From positions 32,001-96,000 of the forward strand of contig JBHLLT010000005.1 in assembly GCA_048938855.1 (NCBI GenBank): DNA of 64,000 bases, given 5' to 3'. The first letter of the stretch is position 1; the number at the start of each line of letters is the position of its first letter. Source of the DNA: Promethearchaeota archaeon (lineage in GTDB: Archaea > Asgardarchaeota > Lokiarchaeia > Sigyniarchaeales > SOKP01). Positions 18,411 to 54,618 of the stretch are shown piece by piece. A program made the translations under genes and the position numbers. Under the pieces are notes generated by a model. That model was not told the DNA's origin and did not search any database. It was given only the letters and a program-made list of their open reading frames with translations.

Positions 18411-18797
18411 CTATTTCCTGTATGTGGGATTTTTGATATCCCTTTCTCTAATCGTCGATACAAGATTATGAAAATTTTCTTTAAAATTTATCAGATTTGA
18501 ATATTCACGAAATTTTAAATAAGGGTTATAAAGAAAACTGACAATCTTGAATCTTCCTTTTCTAGGAAGCCATTTTTTTTCAGAGATCTCATTATAAAGC
18601 CTAAATAAGGCCTGATCTGATTTTAATCCTAATTTTATGGAGGTCATATAGATTCTTACCATTTGAGATTCATTTTCTTTACGTTTTAATAATTTTATTT
18701 GAATTTCAAATTGAATAAAATACGGGGATCTTAGTTTAACAATTAATTTGTCATGTAATAATCCTCTAATCAGAGGAATAGATATTGTTAAAATCAT
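18411..18797 (-). CDS. Hypothetical basic protein
   Basis: 128-aa ORF, no recognised motif. Confidence 0.5.
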   Translation of the reverse strand: MILTISIPLIRGLLHDKLIVKLRSPYFIQFEIQIKLLKRKENESQMVRIYMTSIKLGLKSDQALFRLYNEISEKKWLPRKGRFKIVSFLYNPYLKFREYSNLINFKENFHNLVSTIRERDIKNPTYRK

Positions 18798-18926
18798 GTA
18801 GATTATAATTAATCTTGATGATTAGATTACATTTGTTATATTATTCTAATTAGTCTTAAGAAAAAGAATAAAATTTTTATAAAATAATCCTATATTTAAA
18901 ATCCCGTATAACATAGAAAATCCTAA

Positions 18927-19946
18927 TTGGTGAGTTTCATTTCTCAAACAATTTTAAAATTAGAAAATGTTTCTAAGAAGTTTGGAAATTTAACAGCTGT
19001 TAACAATATAAGTATAGAAGTTAAAAAAGGTGAAGTAATTGGATTTGTTGGGCCAAATGGAGCTGGTAAAACCACAACATTAAAATTAATTGCGAGACTA
19101 ATCAGACCAACTTCTGGAGAAATTTACATATTAAACAACCAGGATAAATTACAAAATCTTAAAGAAAAATTCGAAAATCTTGTCGATATGGGTTTCTTGA
19201 TAGATATTCCTCATTTTTACAATTCAACACCTTATCAATTATTAAAATATGTTGGAAATCTTAAGAATTATCCTAAAAAGAAATTAAAACTAAGAATTGA
19301 TCAATTATTGACATCCTTTAATTTAATTAGATGGAAATATAAGAAGGTCAAAAATTTCTCCAAAGGAATGAATCAGAAATTAGGGTTTATCGCAGCAATT
19401 ATTCATGATCCTGAAATTATAATATTAGATGAACCTCAAACTGGATTAGATCCTATTGCTCGAATTAATGTACGAAAGAATATAAAAGAACTTCAAAAAA
19501 ATGGAAAAACTATATTTATTTCTTCTCATATGTTATTTGAAATTACTGAAGTTTGTGATAAAATTGCATTAATAAATGAAGGCTCAATTATTGCATTTGA
19601 TACTTTAGAAAATCTAGAGAATTTACTTGTGACTAAGGAAATTGTCTGTGAACTTTCAAAACCAATCACAATAGAAAAAAAAGACTCAATAATAACAAAA
19701 CTCGTTCAACATCTTGAACCGTACTTAGATATAACAATTTCAGAAAATCCTGTTATATATAATCCACAAGAGAAGAAAATCATTATCTATTATAATGGTA
19801 AACAGGAATCAAGATCTGAGATATTAAACATTTTAATTAATGAATTTAAATCAGAATTTGCTATTGATTCATTCTCTAAACCAAAAACGTCTCAACTAGA
19901 GAAATTATATACTCAATTAATAAATGGAAATAAAAAAAAAACATAA
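18927..19946 (+). CDS. ABC-2 type transporter ATP-binding protein
   Basis: GPNGAGKTT, FSKGM, ILDEP, SSH. Confidence 0.93.
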   Translation: MVSFISQTILKLENVSKKFGNLTAVNNISIEVKKGEVIGFVGPNGAGKTTTLKLIARLIRPTSGEIYILNNQDKLQNLKEKFENLVDMGFLIDIPHFYNSTPYQLLKYVGNLKNYPKKKLKLRIDQLLTSFNLIRWKYKKVKNFSKGMNQKLGFIAAIIHDPEIIILDEPQTGLDPIARINVRKNIKELQKNGKTIFISSHMLFEITEVCDKIALINEGSIIAFDTLENLENLLVTKEIVCELSKPITIEKKDSIITKLVQHLEPYLDITISENPVIYNPQEKKIIIYYNGKQESRSEILNILINEFKSEFAIDSFSKPKTSQLEKLYTQLINGNKKKT

Positions 19947-19961
19947 ATAAAGTGTGTAAAA

Positions 19962-20762
19962 ATGGATTTATTAAATAATTTATATTTTGAAATAAAACCT
20001 ATTTTTCATACTTTCACTTTTGAAATAAGACTACAATTGAAAAAATTTGTTATCTTTTCAGGAATATCTATTCTTATATTATTCTTAGATCAATTTATAA
20101 GAACTATCCAAACACAGTTTTTAGATGATCAATTTTACTTCTATAAATATGGATTGGGTCCTTTTACTTTAATTATTAGTTTTGCTGTTTCTTTTTTATT
20201 TGGTGGTATTATTTGTTCTGAGTTTAAAAATAAGACAGGTTTAGAAATTATACCTTTAATTCATAGATATAAATTAATTCTCGGAAAATATCTTGCAAAT
20301 TCACTATTAGTTATTGGTATTATTTCAGTTTATTATTTAACTATGGCTCTTTTTGCTTATTATTTCTTTGCTGGGCCGCTACTCAAAACTTTATTATATA
20401 GTTTTAGTTTTGCAGTATTATATGCTTTAGCATTAGGTAGCATTGCGACTTTTTTAAGTTCTTTTTTACGATCAATCATACCCATAATTTTAATAATTGT
20501 AGGATATACTTTCATAGGAGATTTAATTATTACATCTATTATTAGAGGCATTAATAACCAGTTAGAACCATTATTTTCTTTCGATTATCTTTTTAATATA
20601 GTAGAGAATATTTTATATCCCAATTTCACTCAGTGGAATAGACTTAGTCCTTCCGGAATTTGGATGTTTCCAAGTATTGAAGGAGCATTAATTATATTAT
20701 CGCTTTACATTGTATCATTTCTTGTTTTAAGTATTTTATTATTTAAACGTAGGGAATTTTAA
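19962..20762 (+). CDS. ABC-2 type transporter permease
   Basis: About six TM helices, EFKNKT..LGKY, ends FKRREF; follows the ATPase. Confidence 0.88.
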   Translation: MDLLNNLYFEIKPIFHTFTFEIRLQLKKFVIFSGISILILFLDQFIRTIQTQFLDDQFYFYKYGLGPFTLIISFAVSFLFGGIICSEFKNKTGLEIIPLIHRYKLILGKYLANSLLVIGIISVYYLTMALFAYYFFAGPLLKTLLYSFSFAVLYALALGSIATFLSSFLRSIIPIILIIVGYTFIGDLIITSIIRGINNQLEPLFSFDYLFNIVENILYPNFTQWNRLSPSGIWMFPSIEGALIILSLYIVSFLVLSILLFKRREF

Positions 20763-47086: not shown

Positions 47087-49174
47087 ATGCAAGCTCAAAA
47101 GCTTATAAAATTCATGGAAAATCAAATTCAGGACTTTGAAAATCAAAAAGCACTTCAGCAAAATAAAAATCGTAATCTTGGAATCATCTATACTCCAAAT
47201 GAAATTGTAGATTATATAGTTTCCAATATATTCAGAATCTTTTTCCGTGAATATTTTACTTCTCTAAAAATCAATCAGGTAGATGTCAATATAGAAAAAT
47301 TAGTTGATATTTTAGGTAGAAATCCAGAATTTAAAGTTAAGATATATAATATAATTAAAAATTTGAGAATTTTAGATCCCTCTTGTGGTTCTGGGAGATT
47401 TTTAATATCAATAGCAGAAAAATTATATAAAATTTATCAAGTAGTAAATCCTGGATTATCGCCTCTTGAACTTAAGAAATCAATTATTGAGAGAAACCTA
47501 TATGCAAATGAAATTGATCAATCCGCTATTGTTATTGCCAAGTTACGGCTAATTCAGTGGCTTTTATCTAATGATCCTAATAATATTACCTACTATATTC
47601 CCAACTTTAAGAGTTTCAAAGCTACAAATATTAATCATTTCATTGAAATATTAAATCTCAAATTTAATATTTACAACTTAGATTTCCTCTTAGAATTTGA
47701 CTCTGATAAATTCGATATTATTGTTGGGAATCCACCATATGTCGAAAACAAGCGGATAAAGGATAAAGAATTTAAAAAAAAACTGATAAATAGATATCAA
47801 TCGGCATATCGATTATTCGATCTTTCAATCATATTCATCGAGAGATCTTTAGAGTTATTAAATATTGGAGGATATCTCTCACTAATTTTACCAAATAAAT
47901 TTCTATCTGCAGATTATGGTATTAAAATCAGATCGTTATTGCTAAATGAATCAGAAATCAAAGAAATCATAAATATCTCATCGTTATCTGTGTTTCAAAA
48001 TGCAGCTACATACCCTATAATATTATCTTCGAAAAAAACTAATCAAATCAAAAAGAAAGAAATTGTTATTAAATCATACAAGAAAATAAGTGAATTAGTT
48101 AATAATGCCAAAAATATGACATTATATCTTAACCAGAGTCAAATTGACTATCTACCTTCAAAAGTAATTCCTCTCTCAGATAATATAAATTTATTAACAT
48201 TTTTATTTAAAAACTTTGAAGCTTTTGATGAAACCTTTAAAGATTTGAAAATCATTTATCGACCATTTGGTTTTTTAAAATATGGTAGACATTATGATAA
48301 CATCAGTAATAAACCTCAGTCTGATAATGATTTATTATTAATTGGAACTAGTAATGTAGGAAAGTTTCATATTAAATTCGATAAAAGAATAAAAATTATG
48401 GGGAACGATCTTGAAATATCATACTTTAATTATAATTCTAACTTTGAGCATATCTGGAATGATCTCAATAGTGAAAAACTTATTTTTAGAGAAATCGCGA
48501 AAGATTTAACATTTTTTTATGATCCTGGAGTATTTACTAATATAACTGGTCTCTATTTTATTAAAATTCCCTCATTAAATACTGATCAGTTATTTGGTCT
48601 TTTAACAATATTAAATTCTGAATTTATGAACTCGGTGTTTAAATCACTATTTAGTACATTACATATGGCAGGGGGTTATTTAAGATTTAATGGCAGCTTT
48701 ATTAAAAGATTACCCATGCCAAGAATATTTCCTATGTTTTTATCACAATTGGGGAAAATTCTACAATTTCTTTCCCAATTAAATTATAGTTTCAACTCAT
48801 CTAATTTTAAATATGCAAGAAATAATGAATTAGAGCAATTTAAGGATAAATATAATAACAAAATTAATGTTTCTCTTACTTTTTTCAATAAACTTAGTAA
48901 TTCTCTAGTCAAATTATTATTCCTTGATGAATTTTACTTAAAAAATAATATAGATTATAACATTCTAAGAGATTTATTGGACTTAAGAGGAGATTTTCAA
49001 AAAATACCAGCAAAATTTTTAATTCCGGTCTTCCATTTAAAAAATTATAAAGTTTTCTCCTTTAATGAATTAGATTGTATTTTGACTGAAATTGTCAAAT
49101 TTTGTAGAAGACTACAGTGCAATAAAGAATTATTAAAACAAGTAGATAACCTATTAAAAACTAATTTCAGTTAA
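47087..49174 (+). CDS. N6-adenine DNA methyltransferase (Eco57I/TaqI-like, gamma order), no adjacent nuclease
   Basis: YTP, ILDPSCGSGRF, VGNPPY, TaqI-C-like C-terminus. Confidence 0.85.
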   Translation: MQAQKLIKFMENQIQDFENQKALQQNKNRNLGIIYTPNEIVDYIVSNIFRIFFREYFTSLKINQVDVNIEKLVDILGRNPEFKVKIYNIIKNLRILDPSCGSGRFLISIAEKLYKIYQVVNPGLSPLELKKSIIERNLYANEIDQSAIVIAKLRLIQWLLSNDPNNITYYIPNFKSFKATNINHFIEILNLKFNIYNLDFLLEFDSDKFDIIVGNPPYVENKRIKDKEFKKKLINRYQSAYRLFDLSIIFIERSLELLNIGGYLSLILPNKFLSADYGIKIRSLLLNESEIKEIINISSLSVFQNAATYPIILSSKKTNQIKKKEIVIKSYKKISELVNNAKNMTLYLNQSQIDYLPSKVIPLSDNINLLTFLFKNFEAFDETFKDLKIIYRPFGFLKYGRHYDNISNKPQSDNDLLLIGTSNVGKFHIKFDKRIKIMGNDLEISYFNYNSNFEHIWNDLNSEKLIFREIAKDLTFFYDPGVFTNITGLYFIKIPSLNTDQLFGLLTILNSEFMNSVFKSLFSTLHMAGGYLRFNGSFIKRLPMPRIFPMFLSQLGKILQFLSQLNYSFNSSNFKYARNNELEQFKDKYNNKINVSLTFFNKLSNSLVKLLFLDEFYLKNNIDYNILRDLLDLRGDFQKIPAKFLIPVFHLKNYKVFSFNELDCILTEIVKFCRRLQCNKELLKQVDNLLKTNFS

Positions 49175-49292
49175 TTATTAATTCTTATGTTGTTTTCCTT
49201 CATACAAAATCGAATTAAAATTATATTTTAGTAAAAATTATATAATAAAACGAATAATTAGTAAAAATCAATTAAAAATTTAAGTGAGAGAT

Positions 49293-49607
49293 ATGGCTAA
49301 AAAAAAGAGTGCACCAAGCGGAGAAGATGATTATGAAGTTCCCACTGGGAAAGTAGATGAAGATGGAGATGAAGTAATAGATCTAAATGAGTGGAAAGAT
49401 GATTTAGAAGAAGATGTAATATATGAAATCCCTGATGATGATGACATGATTGAAGACGAAACCGAAGATGAAGAATTTGGCATGGAAGTCGATGATGTTG
49501 TAAAAATGTTACGAGATGTTAAATGTAAGCCCTGTCCTGGTTTAAGAAGTAAACCAGATTGTAAAATTGCTCATGATTATGGATGTCCAAAACCAAAAAT
49601 GCCATAA
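49293..49607 (+). CDS. Very acidic small protein with C-terminal 4-Cys motif
   Basis: About one third D/E; CKPC-x8-C-x7-C; ATG 49293 after AAGTGA. Confidence 0.75.
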   Translation: MAKKKSAPSGEDDYEVPTGKVDEDGDEVIDLNEWKDDLEEDVIYEIPDDDDMIEDETEDEEFGMEVDDVVKMLRDVKCKPCPGLRSKPDCKIAHDYGCPKPKMP

Positions 49608-50687: not shown

Positions 50688-51848
50688 TTAATATGTATTA
50701 ATCATAACTTTAATAGCTTCAAGAGCTAATTCTATACTAACATTAATAAGATTAAGTTTTTTTTTGAAGTAATCAAGATCCGAATTTGATTTATCAATTT
50801 CTTCAAAAATGTTAAAAAAATGTTTCTGGGACTCTAATTCCATAGAATAAATATTTGGTCGAGATGTTAAATTACTCATATTGACAAAACATCCATGATT
50901 TACGAAATTATGATTAAAAGCAGGGAAATAAGTTTCCCATAATTTTTCTTTCAAATTATTATATACAGTATTAGCTAACTTTAAGCAATAGTCTTTACTC
51001 TTATCATTATAGCAGAAATAAAAAGGTAATTTACCTATTCCGTGATTTCTCAAATTATATTCTTTTAATTTTTCAAAAACTATCTCAAATTGTTTATGAG
51101 TTAAATTTAAGTGTGCATGATCAGCAGAAGGGCTGCACTTGAAGAATAACGGTTTGCAATAATAAGGAATATCATATAATTTCATAATGTTTAAGATTAT
51201 CCCTTCCTTAAGCCAATGATCAAACTTATAATACGGATTGAGACTGTTAACCAATTCAATTTGAAAGCGTTCTAATAAAGAAGTCTCATGAAAATCAAGT
51301 ATATATAAATTTACGTCATGTTTATCCCAATATTTTTGTAGTATCTGTTTAACAATATTTACTTGTCCGGGTAAAGTTTTACACTTTAAATCGTTATTTT
51401 CATTACTAATATTAGGAATAAATGCTTTACACCAAAATCTATTAAGATTTGTACCATCTTCCAGATAATAGCCAGATTTGTTTGATTTACTAGGATTTTT
51501 GAAACCATAAGGATTTAATAATGGTATAAAAATTAAAATCTGATTTGATCTCGCTACATCATTAAGTTCTATTTTTTTTTCTCGTAGCAATTCAAAAAAT
51601 TTTAGCATACTAAATAAACCATTATATTCATTATGTTGAGCACCTATAAAGATTTTTACGTGATTACAATCATCTAATTTAGTATTCTTGGCAATTTTAA
51701 TAACAGGTATAATGATCTTAGAACTTTTATATATCTGATAACTTATGAAGTTTAAATTTTTAACTAATTCTAATTCATTTAGAATTTCTTTAAATAACAT
51801 TTCTCGGTTAGAAATATCCAATAAAGCTTTTAATGTTTTAAGTTTCAT
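50688..51848 (-). CDS. M14-family zinc carboxypeptidase-like protein
   Basis: GAQHNE (HxxE), IPLLNPYG, GTNLNR, LDFHE, MELE; ATG 51848 is one base after the upstream TGA (track start 51950 overlaps the neighbour). Confidence 0.8.
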   Translation of the reverse strand: MKLKTLKALLDISNREMLFKEILNELELVKNLNFISYQIYKSSKIIIPVIKIAKNTKLDDCNHVKIFIGAQHNEYNGLFSMLKFFELLREKKIELNDVARSNQILIFIPLLNPYGFKNPSKSNKSGYYLEDGTNLNRFWCKAFIPNISNENNDLKCKTLPGQVNIVKQILQKYWDKHDVNLYILDFHETSLLERFQIELVNSLNPYYKFDHWLKEGIILNIMKLYDIPYYCKPLFFKCSPSADHAHLNLTHKQFEIVFEKLKEYNLRNHGIGKLPFYFCYNDKSKDYCLKLANTVYNNLKEKLWETYFPAFNHNFVNHGCFVNMSNLTSRPNIYSMELESQKHFFNIFEEIDKSNSDLDYFKKKLNLINVSIELALEAIKVMINTY

Positions 51849-51849
51849 A

Positions 51850-53295
51850 TCAAACAATAATTTTTTTCCAGTCTGAGAAATTGATGATCTTATTATAATT
51901 TTTTGCGATTGTTGCGAATAAAACGCAGCCAATACAGAACATATTAGCAAAATCTTCTTTTGTCAAGTTTAACAAACCACAATTTTTTTCTGAAAATCCT
52001 ATTCCACGTTCAACTTCAATTTGGCCATTATAACCCGATAAATTTACTACAAATTCTTGTTTATTTAATTTAACTTTATTAACAAATTCTTCTCGTGCAA
52101 TTCTTGCTAATCCTCCAATAGGGATAACTTCACCTTTTCGTTGAGCTAGATAGATTCGTAAATCAAAAGTATGGTTCCCTCCTTTCCAATCGATTAAGGA
52201 AAAATTAGCCATCTCTTGAATGGTGTATGGGAATGGGTCACGATTTTCCATAAATTTAGCATAAAATTCATTCTTACTTTTTTCAACTAAATTTTTAATA
52301 TTATGAAGATCTTCATCTTTTGAAATAGGTATAACTCCTGCTCCTCCAGAACCTCCACTAGGTTTAATAATAAATGATTTTTTATATTCTTTAATGAGAA
52401 AATTCAATTTTTCAACTAATTCCTTCTCACTAAATGCTTTTGTGAACAATAGGTACTTTAAATTATATTTTTTAAGTAAATCTTTACTAAAATAGCTAGC
52501 TAAATATGTTAGAGACTTATCATCAGTGATATTAAAAATAGGATTCACTAAAATTGAATTTACTTTGTGGAAATCTTGTTTAACTAATTTTAAAAATTTT
52601 TTATTGTTGAAACGTCTTGTTATACCATCTCCTATTAATACACTTACCTTTTCTCCTTTATATTTAATCCAATTATTAGAAAATGAAAGTGATTTAGATA
52701 ATTGTTTATAATCAGCAATTAAAAATACAATTTCAGCTCTAAAATATTTGTCGTAATTATCAATATTAAAAATTTTAACTGAATGTTCATTAGCTTTAAA
52801 ATAATTTCTAAAATATTCTATCATTATTATTTTTTCATGGATTAAACCATCATTAACAGGTACTCCAACTATTACAAAAATTTTGTTAACTGTATGCTTA
52901 TTTCGTATAATAGCTCGAGTAATTGCTTCAATATAACCATCATATAAAAGAGATTGTTGTTTCTTAGTAATTATTGAAAGACCTCGGTGAGATCCACCAT
53001 TGGTTTCCAAAAGAAAGAATTTTTTCCCATTAGGATCATCAGATACCATAAAATCAATGCTACCAGCATAAAATGAATCTGCATCAATTAATGTGTTATC
53101 ATTTCCGATTTCCATCATTGTTAAAGCTTTATCTCTAACGTCATCTATAAAAGTATCTTCTTGTGAGGCTCTCAAATCGGCGAATGACACCAAATCAAGA
53201 CCTAAAGATTTTCCTAAGTTGATTAATTCTAAATCTGAATCTGATATTTTTGAAGACATTAGTTTTAGGAACTTTGTGAGAAGATCCTCATCCAT
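51850..53295 (-). CDS. Circularly permuted ATP-grasp ligase (YheC/D/TTL-like)
   Basis: N-terminal GSIDFM..FFLLETN; then DK, IIKPSGGSGGAGV, IQE, FDLRIY, ARIA, VVNLS. Confidence 0.8.
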   Translation of the reverse strand: MDEDLLTKFLKLMSSKISDSDLELINLGKSLGLDLVSFADLRASQEDTFIDDVRDKALTMMEIGNDNTLIDADSFYAGSIDFMVSDDPNGKKFFLLETNGGSHRGLSIITKKQQSLLYDGYIEAITRAIIRNKHTVNKIFVIVGVPVNDGLIHEKIIMIEYFRNYFKANEHSVKIFNIDNYDKYFRAEIVFLIADYKQLSKSLSFSNNWIKYKGEKVSVLIGDGITRRFNNKKFLKLVKQDFHKVNSILVNPIFNITDDKSLTYLASYFSKDLLKKYNLKYLLFTKAFSEKELVEKLNFLIKEYKKSFIIKPSGGSGGAGVIPISKDEDLHNIKNLVEKSKNEFYAKFMENRDPFPYTIQEMANFSLIDWKGGNHTFDLRIYLAQRKGEVIPIGGLARIAREEFVNKVKLNKQEFVVNLSGYNGQIEVERGIGFSEKNCGLLNLTKEDFANMFCIGCVLFATIAKNYNKIINFSDWKKIIV

Positions 53296-53391
53296 AAATA
53301 ATTATAATTATATCAAAATTTAAAAAAATTAGTCTTATTACTCATATATAAAGATTGAAATTAGGAACTAGTTTAATAAGAAGATAAAAAA

Positions 53392-54618
53392 TTAGAGATA
53401 CAAATACCCTTGATGATTTCCTTTAATGCTTAATCTAAGAGAACCAATAAGTATTTTCTTTACCTTAAGTTGTTCCTTATAAGTCAAGTTTGAATAAAGT
53501 AAGATGTAATTCTTTTCAATATTTATTGTAAACAGAAGTCCAATTTCAATCAATTCAGATTTTTCAGTCATTAAACCAATTATTACATAATGATAAGGAA
53601 GATTAATAAGTTCATAAATATCTAACTCTTTTTCAAAAATTTGATCTGCTTCCTTATCAAATTCTGTTTTTATGAACTTAATATCATCAATAGGAATCGA
53701 AATTTTTCGGAACTCTTCAAATTTCTTAGAAAATTGGCTTTGGCGTAAAAATCTTCTTTCGTCTTTATCTTTTTCATAAAAATATTTATTTTTCTCTTTA
53801 ATTAGAAAGATCTTTCTATCTTTCCTAGTACTTGATGAAGTCTTTTCAATTGTTTGAAGTTCCTCGACTGTTTCATCCTGAAAAATTATCAAAACATCTG
53901 GATCAACTGTGTTAATAAAAAAATTTTTATAAAGGATCCCTGCCTCAGTTTTAATCCAACCATCTGTATCAATTAAAACAAAATCAATGGGCTTATTCTT
54001 GTTAACGTAGTTATCAATTAGATTCCTACATGAATGAGAAACAATGAATTTATAATCTCCTTTTGGAAAAGTAGCTCCAATAAAAATAGTTTTCTCAGAG
54101 ATAATATCTTCACTTGAAACAATAAAATCTCCGATAGAACCAATGTTTATCGTAGTGGGAATATATATTATTTGTTGACCCAGATCAGAATCAAGATATC
54201 CTCCTTTCAACCCTTCTTTTAGGAAGTGGTTTGCTAAATACTTGATAAAAGTTGTTTTTCCGCTACTAATCCCTAATACCATGATTTTAAGCTCAGCGCC
54301 TTGTTTTTGTTTTAGAATTTTTATGATAGAATCTTTTATCTCACTCCAATTTGAAGAAATCGAATTTTCTTCAATATTTACAAGATTTTCTTCAGATCTA
54401 ATATATATATCTAATTTTGATTTCTCTACAGCATAAATAGGATAACTTTGTGCACTTGGTACTATTAATACATTATTTAGATTTGATACATCGGAGGATG
54501 ATTCCTCTTTCTCGGGAGTAAGTATTTTTCCAAAAACATCGACTTTTCCCTCTAATAAGGTTAATCTTGCTGGACCTTTTACTAGTAAGGTATGTCCTTT
54601 ATTTATATTTTTAATCAT
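53392..54618 (-). CDS. Clp1/Grc3-like polynucleotide 5'-kinase
   Basis: LLVKGPA, SGKTT, DSDLGQ, IDTDGW, ERRFLR. Confidence 0.88.
   Translation of the reverse strand: MIKNINKGHTLLVKGPARLTLLEGKVDVFGKILTPEKEESSSDVSNLNNVLIVPSAQSYPIYAVEKSKLDIYIRSEENLVNIEENSISSNWSEIKDSIIKILKQKQGAELKIMVLGISSGKTTFIKYLANHFLKEGLKGGYLDSDLGQQIIYIPTTINIGSIGDFIVSSEDIISEKTIFIGATFPKGDYKFIVSHSCRNLIDNYVNKNKPIDFVLIDTDGWIKTEAGILYKNFFINTVDPDVLIIFQDETVEELQTIEKTSSSTRKDRKIFLIKEKNKYFYEKDKDERRFLRQSQFSKKFEEFRKISIPIDDIKFIKTEFDKEADQIFEKELDIYELINLPYHYVIIGLMTEKSELIEIGLLFTINIEKNYILLYSNLTYKEQLKVKKILIGSLRLSIKGNHQGYLYL

Follow-up and report, generated by a model that had tools for sequence, protein, structure and literature searches.

A predicted permuted ATP-grasp ligase and an M14-fold hydrolase in Lokiarchaeia, and their association with an RtcB-like gene

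Two adjoining genes at positions 50688 to 53295 of a 64,000-nucleotide stretch of a Promethearchaeota archaeon contig (JBHLLT010000005.1; the whole stretch is called the window here) raise the question of what an ATP-grasp ligase and an M14-type carboxypeptidase do together in an Asgard archaeon. A sequence-only reading of this DNA had proposed a writer and an eraser of protein tags, akin to the eukaryotic TTL/TTLL ligases and cytosolic carboxypeptidases (CCP). We put the odds slightly above even, at roughly 0.55, that the two proteins form and recycle an amide within an undescribed, scattered pathway with an RtcB-like enzyme and a phosphoesterase at its core and a predicted small-molecule substrate. 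The pair has the following features.

51850..53295, minus strand: gene for the permuted ATP-grasp ligase (open reading frame, 481 amino acids)
50688..51848, minus strand: gene for a predicted M14-fold zinc carboxypeptidase/deacylase variant, the hydrolase (open reading frame, 386 amino acids)
51849..51849, minus strand: one-base spacer from ligase stop to hydrolase start (TGA-T-ATG), read from the sequence
52999..53055, minus strand: N-terminally permuted metal-binding strands of the ligase, D81...E97-x-N99 (family alignment, n=90)
51627..51638, minus strand: altered first zinc motif of the hydrolase, Q71-H72-N73-E74, invariant in 28 diverse members

As had been noted, the two genes (53295-51850 and 51848-50688) are one base apart, suggesting that their translation may be coupled. 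The ligase start is placed at Met13 in a database record, which gives 469 amino acids. The arrangement is conserved in related Lokiarchaeia: the hydrolase lies no more than 94 bp downstream of the ligase in each of the 79 other genomes whose hydrolase gene is intact or cut by a contig end, two of them belonging to another family with different flanking genes. The coupling is therefore real and not a matter of chance. Homologs are named as Promethearchaeota or Lokiarchaeota, which bears out the Asgard origin. Neither protein has a signal peptide or a membrane helix by hydropathy, in agreement with the earlier view that both are cytosolic.

The ligase and its permuted relatives

The ATP-grasp motifs that the sequence-only reading had named in the ligase are all present (K311-P312 with a Gly loop at 314-320, Q360-E361, D378-x-R380, R398, and V417-N418). 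In the 90-member family alignment, the metal residues D81 (88/90), E97 (88/90), and N99 (86/90) precede K260, K311, the Gly loop, D378-x-R380, R398, and N418, all of which are conserved. Since the D81...E97-x-N99 metal-binding strands stand at the N-terminus, the ligase is, judged by its residue order, circularly permuted. In TTL, R202 precedes D318 and E331, i.e., the unpermuted order (PMC3563685), whereas D81, E97, and N99 of the ligase precede R380. The assignment to a YheC/D/TTL type was thus not upheld, as neither TTL/TTLL nor YheC/D is permuted. The protein Pfam scan gave no match to PF03133 (TTL) at E up to 1, and the match to PF14398 (YheC/D) scored 25.3 bits against a cut-off of 26.8, covering profile positions 27-151 of 255 only.

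Structural comparison placed the ligase in the same group. Its predicted structure is confident (pLDDT 93.5), and the first five entries in the structural ranking (3k1t, 5oeu, 7uka, 1m0t, and 2io7) are all solved permuted members that match sequentially. The best, 3k1t, is a GshA-type permuted ATP-grasp (PF08886; putative gamma-glutamylcysteine synthetase) with a Z score of 15.3 over 329 residues at 12% identity, and the match takes in both permuted N-terminal strands and the C-terminal helix of the ligase. Glutathione-synthetase-like proteins (Z 13.5-11.5), YgiC (12.9), and glutathionylspermidine (Gsp) synthetase (12.8) also matched. While the permuted enzymes (Z 11.5-15.3) aligned from ligase residue 16-58 on, TTLL11 (Z 10.6) and TTL (Z 9.6) gave partial alignments from residue 138 only; ArgX (Z 12.7) and LysX (Z 11.6) likewise matched part of the model. 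The first 44 Foldseek matches were all permuted enzymes (top E 3e-12 to 1e-6), and the Atlas structure neighbours, which include a GshA-like protein, agree with this placement.

The circular permutation is the same as in eukaryotic glutathione (GSH) synthetase, Gsp synthetase/amidase, YgiC/YjfC, and the E-64 ligase Cp1B. The Gsp ligase is likewise coupled to its own amidase, although that amidase is a cysteine enzyme and the partner here is an M14 zinc enzyme. An Arg two residues before the first metal Asp is typical of GSH and Gsp synthetases. This Arg is not present in the ligase, whose position 79 is Ser in the window and most commonly Ser, Pro, Cys, or Ala in the 90 members. Unlike the GshA-type enzymes, the ligase has no PF08886 match and no GshB neighbour, its partners being M14 and RtcB-like genes. 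With the COG2308/PF14403 permuted ATP-grasps of the alpha-E/transglutaminase/Anbu operon it has in common both the permutation and a D-L-R...G-G-L-x-R...V-V-N signature (3n6x: Z 11.7; TM 0.53 in the Atlas); however, it matches neither PF14403 nor PF04174, and no alpha-E or transglutaminase gene was found in any locus examined. YgiC, YjfC, and Cp1B have been described as permuted ligases (PMC12568646).

Searches of Pfam and NCBIfam gave no name above cut-off for the ligase or the hydrolase, and searches of PDB sequences with either protein or their first alignments returned nothing significant. The ligase is a new branch of the permuted ATP-grasps without a Pfam model, comprising about 120 clusters at 50% identity. 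Sequence and structural model support its prediction as an intact ATP-dependent amide ligase and, together with the data below, the earlier proposal that such a ligase is coupled to an M14-fold hydrolase in an Asgard lineage (Lokiarchaeia).

The hydrolase, its altered zinc motif, and the distribution of the pair

The hydrolase model (pLDDT 91.3), which ends in a long helix, matched ten M14 chains (carboxypeptidases A/B/D/T) at Z 18.7-20.6, so that the M14 alpha/beta fold is present even though the protein scan gave no M14 Pfam match. Scores against CphZ and EutE were 16.1 and 15.1. The NPxG, NLNR, DxH, and C-terminal E motifs seen earlier were recovered as N112-P-x-G, N134-L-N-R137, D185-x-H187, and E339, but the supposed HxxE reads H72-N73-E74, an H-x-E one residue short of the M14 H-x-x-E zinc motif. 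M14 genes beside distant ligases encode Q-H-G-N-E at the position of Q71-H72-N73-E74, and hhalign aligned the hydrolase with these EutE-like partners (probability 92.7, E 4e-7) with a one-residue gap at the Gly. By this alignment, the zinc-ligand His would therefore be retained in a loop shortened by one Gly, rather than changed to Gln.

The nearest match of the EutE-like partners is EutE/DoeB (E 3e-38), a small-molecule deacylase of the ectoine pathway, and the hydrolase descends from EutE/AstE-like deacylases. These M14 partners, comparable to the EutE/DoeB and AstE/AspA deacylases, share the first-zinc-ligand motif with the window's hydrolase, which in contrast has lost one zinc-loop Gly and the C-terminal domain (neither a PF24827 match nor an AstE C-terminal domain was found) and has gained helical insertions. 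Its alignment to catalytic domains starts at its own residue 1-9 and enters 4a37 at residue 80 and CCP5 at residue 159; the CCP N-terminal beta-rich domain (PF18027) is missing, with no Pfam match to it. The hydrolase is thus an M14 variant and not a CCP.

H72, E74, N136-R137, H187, and E339 are invariant at a mean column identity of 55% (roles assigned by position). R137 we take to be the carboxylate clamp of M14 enzymes. Together with H187 and E339, this invariant residue argues for an active site under selection around a predicted zinc site. The same invariance would not be expected of a dead enzyme, and we consider it quite unlikely that the ligase works in the RtcB-like pathway with a Lokiarchaeia hydrolase that, having little or no catalytic activity, serves as a binding or regulatory partner instead of an eraser. 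The H-x-E spacing, which departs from the M14 zinc motif, the lack of a Pfam match, and the far more frequent loss of the gene are what speak for such a partner.

This loss was followed in 150 Lokiarchaeia genomes besides the window's own, 126 of them in the window's family. The ligase was matched in 116 of the 126 (two weakly) and in three genomes of other families, and the hydrolase in 82 of the 126 (five of these being stubs) and in two others. In genus g4 the hydrolase is missing from 32 of 40 genomes, and in five close relatives it is reduced to stubs of 30-84 codons beside an intact ligase; the hydrolase is dispensable in these relatives.

In a second sample of 301 genomes drawn across the phylum and searched with the ligase profile, full-length ligases were confined to family f1 (63/68) and one genome of family f2; in other families, eight genomes had matches that were weak and partial. 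The pair is therefore lineage-restricted and not an Asgard-wide eukaryotic signature, nor is it syntenic across Asgard genomes. The genome that contains the window is 97% complete and has two tubulin-family (PF00091) genes, both FtsZ-like and without a Glu-rich tail; no tubulin with an acidic tail was found in it by the PF00091 search.

These results bear on reversible protein tagging (mono- or poly-Glu, -Gly, or -Tyr) of the TTLL/CCP or RimK kind, whose target might be the RtcB-like enzyme, its partners, or a small acidic protein encoded at 49284-49607. A ligase with a carboxylate-clamping M14 enzyme has the right chemistry: TTL/TTLL and CCP (M14D) likewise combine a cytosolic ATP-grasp ligase acting through acyl-phosphate (PMC3563685) with an M14 enzyme, the D378-x-R380 arrangement resembles R202 of TTL (PMC3563685) and that of RimK, YgiC and YjfC of the permuted group accept peptides (PMC12568646), and ArgX and LysX match part of the ligase model. 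Against this stand the permuted order, nearest folds that are small-molecule ligases and not TTL, a hydrolase without the CCP N-domain, tubulin-family genes of the FtsZ type only, the narrow distribution within Asgard, and an eraser that has been deleted repeatedly. Moreover, genomes without the ligase still have the acidic protein, and co-loss with phosphodiesterases (below) would be left unexplained. Protein tagging is chemically possible but without positive support here, and we rate it as improbable; the kinship with TTLL/CCP is given up. What survives of that proposal is its make-and-break logic on a single amide bond, which is plausible.

An RtcB-like gene travels with the pair

Ligases distant from the one in the window are adjoined by a gene of 400 amino acids without a Pfam match. 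The top PDB matches of its profile are all RtcB, and the profile aligns to the genome's own canonical RtcB. The metal Cys/His ligands and the guanylylated His occur in order (D70, C109, N152-H153, H176, H260, and H338 invariant, n=41), but the Asp three residues before the Cys ligand is replaced (Pro106), as is the Lys of the H-R-K-G-A motif. The best NCBIfam matches, all weak, are to the RtcB2 rRNA-repair family. This RtcB-like gene is present in 127 of the 151 Lokiarchaeia genomes. A PF01139 search of the window's genome finds the canonical RtcB gene on contig C81 only and not the RtcB-like gene, which lies elsewhere.

G000:C24:4002-5249 (L062), minus strand: divergent RtcB-fold gene of the window's own genome, convergent with metG, no Pfam match

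We located 21 genome loci with the distant-ligase alignment and counted partners within four genes; the scan patterns used favour this clade. The RtcB-like gene occurs in 17 of these loci, an M14 gene in 18, and both in 15, most exceptions being short contigs. The trio appears in at least four gene orders and spans Actinomycetota, Chloroflexota, Bipolaricaulota, Hadarchaeota, Methanohalarchaeum, and Thermoplasmatota, with compact three-gene operons in other prokaryotes such as Methanohalarchaeum thermophilum. In a quick tree, the Lokiarchaeia ligases nest inside a clade whose members adjoin the RtcB-like gene and M14, and in two distant Lokiarchaeia genomes the RtcB-like gene still stands beside the ligase. 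In the window's genome it has moved away, to C24. Literature searches found no description of a ligase/RtcB-like/M14 trio, with the Iyer 2009 and Burroughs 2016 reviews outside their scope; what is new here is that the ligase-hydrolase pair belongs together with the RtcB-like gene, as well as the co-loss test described below. We also weighed a methanopterin role for the RtcB-like gene but discarded it in view of the gene's distribution.

The gene occurs in further settings. In L136-L138 (G055 and G105) and L032 (G078) it is followed by genes for a pyruvoyl arginine decarboxylase and a deoxyhypusine-synthase-like protein, with HD and GDPD (glycerophosphodiesterase) genes next door; three deoxyhypusine-synthase-like paralogs are present in the window's genome (G000:C34, C1, and C39). 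A second RtcB-like paralog of about 27% identity (L140-L143; G120, G049, G041, and G044) lies in a cluster with genes for a probable glycosyltransferase, an NTP-transferase, a CDP-alcohol phosphotransferase, and an inositol-1-phosphate synthase, resembling di-inositol-phosphate synthesis genes. Ligases of a bacterial sister clade (L053 and L058-L061) are followed by an MFS/TLC-like transporter gene, with ComA adjacent on the opposite strand and also ComB in L058. Anaerolineae (L080, L082, L083, and L098-L107) have two ligase paralogs, the second paired with a distinct M14 variant in which Asn replaces the Asp before the third zinc His.

Some of these neighbours would fit a product that the pair by itself synthesizes and degrades, either a polyamine conjugate or a storage peptide (Gsp/YgiC-like or cyanophycin-like). 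In G078, genes for arginine decarboxylase and a deoxyhypusine-synthase-like protein separate the RtcB-like gene from the ligase, and in f2 such genes come after the RtcB-like gene. The ligase is structurally akin to Gsp synthetase, YgiC, and trypanothione synthetase, and the CphZ match of the hydrolase is consistent with a storage peptide. However, M14 enzymes need a terminal carboxylate, which a polyamine does not have, and R137 is invariant; arginine decarboxylase is kept in three of the four genomes that have lost the ligase and is missing from a ligase-positive one; and the link to the RtcB-like gene would go unexplained. Such a product is hardly likely.

Co-loss with a phosphoesterase and the predicted pathway

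Four genomes that are 98-99% complete (G021, G067, G072, and G142) have no ligase, hydrolase, or RtcB-like gene and no remnants of them. In these, CLP1 abuts an abhydrolase gene at the site of the pair, and metG abuts the downstream neighbour at the RtcB-like site. Further co-lost candidates were picked beforehand as neighbours of the RtcB-like gene and compared between the four co-loss genomes and eight controls. One of them stood out.

G000:C74 about 18460-20060 (L145:3464-5059): tandem calcineurin-like phosphoesterase, 531 amino acids, no solved relative by sequence

The phosphoesterase gene is missing from all four co-loss genomes, where it is gone from the syntenic site, and present in all eight controls. 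An orthologous GDPD gene is found in none of the four and in six of the eight. The pair, the RtcB-like gene, and the phosphoesterase gene occupy three unlinked sites. Across the class, the phosphoesterase tracks the RtcB-like gene (outside family f1, 11 genomes with both, 10 with neither, and 3 with one). Because both occur without the ligase in family f2, the data suggest that an RtcB-like/phosphoesterase core was assembled first, followed by the ligase and then by an optional hydrolase. The genes lost together suggest phosphodiester chemistry, not a protein target.

Other candidates did not behave in this way. The HD hydrolase is kept in 4/4 co-loss genomes, the arginine decarboxylase shows the pattern given above, and genomes without the ligase retain both CLP1 and the acidic protein (49284-49607). 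Also retained is the acetyltransferase-like membrane protein gene that precedes the phosphoesterase gene. It encodes (L145:1839-3458) a membrane protein whose hexapeptide acetyltransferase-like domain is similar to the terminal domain of Pls/PosA, and genomes of genus g4 have 11-14 copies of such genes each. Apparent absences in two genomes (G093 and G115) were put down to assembly gaps, because the genes on either side are absent as well.

The folds, the permutation, the intact catalytic residues, the gene linkage, and the co-loss are direct observations, whereas the reactions that they suggest are predictions. RtcB activates phosphate through His-GMP, and M14 enzymes hydrolyse acyl-amino-acid bonds that adjoin a free carboxylate. 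In the pathway that we favour, the RtcB-like enzyme would activate a phosphate monoester via His-GMP and join it to an alcohol, giving a small phosphodiester with a free carboxylate that could be a compatible solute, a head-group precursor, or a cofactor. The M14 hydrolase would cut the acyl-amino-acid bond, and the phosphoesterase and GDPD the phosphodiester. Using ATP and Mg, the permuted ligase would turn the carboxylate into an acyl-phosphate, which would then react with the amino group of a free amino acid, in keeping with ATP-grasps, in which an acyl-phosphate is formed and then coupled to an amine (PMC3563685).

The acceptor would be the RtcB-like product because the genes travel and vanish together. 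A small phosphodiester is the probable product because GDPD is co-lost, because GDPD and HD genes flank the RtcB-like gene in f2, because the second paralog has genes for inositol-1-phosphate synthase, an NTP-transferase, and a CDP-alcohol phosphotransferase around it, and because the bacterial sister-clade ligase goes with a transporter and ComA/ComB. A small-molecule substrate also fits the top folds of the ligase, all of which are permuted enzymes that ligate small molecules or short peptides. As for the amine donor, a free amino acid is proposed because the hydrolase retains the presumed carboxylate clamp R137 and the ligase retains R/K398, residues that favour an amino acid over a polyamine. 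A working analogy is the synthesis of the coenzyme F420 tail (CofC/CofD, then CofE/CofF), where a GMP-activated phosphate ester gives a phosphodiester and amino acids are then ligated to its carboxylate. The proteins are unrelated, and the product here is not indicated as a flavin-type cofactor.

Several points weigh against this pathway. The shortened zinc loop may have inactivated the hydrolase, and three distant ligases have neither partner nearby. In the best tree the co-loss genomes do not form one clade and need three changes, with G067 grouping with carriers at 96/96, but a single clade of the four is not rejected (AU p 0.062). The co-loss therefore represents one to three events, and p-values for co-loss across related genomes overstate. 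In addition, RtcB, HD, calcineurin-like phosphoesterases, and CLP1 are also RNA end-processing enzymes, and a CLP1-like kinase precedes both the ligase here and the trio in one actinobacterium (L067).

This last point speaks for a nucleic-acid-linked form of tagging, in which the RtcB-like enzyme would cap or join an RNA end or add a carboxylated group, the ligase would attach an amino acid, and the M14 enzyme and the phosphoesterase would remove them. In two unrelated lineages the module has a CLP1-like gene as its neighbour: in f1 this gene lies upstream of the ligase, and in L067 it precedes the trio, with a tRNA nucleotidyltransferase gene nearby; the RtcB fold with its Cys/His metal core and nucleophilic His is kept, and the RtcB2 matches point the same way. 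Nevertheless, genomes that have lost the module retain CLP1 and the HD hydrolase, and a canonical RtcB is encoded separately in the window's genome. The RtcB-like protein has substitutions at the Asp preceding the Cys ligand and at the Lys of H-R-K-G-A, and small molecules are indicated by both the co-loss of GDPD and the inositol-phosphate cluster. We regard the RNA-end reading as rather unlikely.

A broader form of the favoured pathway can be put forward tentatively, at odds somewhat short of even. It would be a categorically new pathway of four or five enzymes: an RtcB-fold enzyme, working outside tRNA splicing, would form a phosphodiester that a permuted ATP-grasp then amidates with an amino acid, and each bond would have its own eraser (phosphoesterase/GDPD for one and M14 for the other). 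The product might be an unknown solute, a cofactor, a lipid head group, or an RNA end tagged with an amino acid; it would be near-universal in the largest family of Lokiarchaeia and common to anaerobic bacteria and archaea. If the favoured small-molecule pathway is right, this would be the first non-RNA job for the RtcB fold, carried out with a new permuted ATP-grasp branch that has no Pfam model, and the metabolite would be made by about 90% of the genomes of the most-sampled Lokiarchaeia family. The analysis removes a tempting but unsupported claim of a tubulin code in Asgard archaea and offers a defined gene set in its place, which the three-gene operons elsewhere and the RtcB-like/phosphoesterase core in cultured-type Lokiarchaeia genomes make directly testable.

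Upstream of the ligase, the window contains two further features.

53345..53352, minus strand: possible TATA box about 50 nucleotides upstream of the ligase (from sequence only; weak in AT-rich DNA)
53392-54618, minus strand: CLP1/Nol9-like RNA kinase gene, directly upstream of the ligase

With this candidate TATA box, the pair may have its own promoter. In several relatives, genes are inserted between CLP1 and the ligase. A sigma-70 promoter scan gave matches at chance level, the sigma-70 model being unsuited to archaea. The wider neighbourhood in the window shows nothing beyond the usual synteny of the family, and distant genomes have other genes there. The protein encoded at 49284-49607 on the plus strand is small and Asp/Glu-rich with a Cys-rich tail, has no Pfam match, and is syntenic across the family. 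An Eco57I-like N6-methyltransferase gene (47087-49174, plus strand) occupies the same site in most family members examined, and such a conserved site is unusual for a restriction-type methylase.

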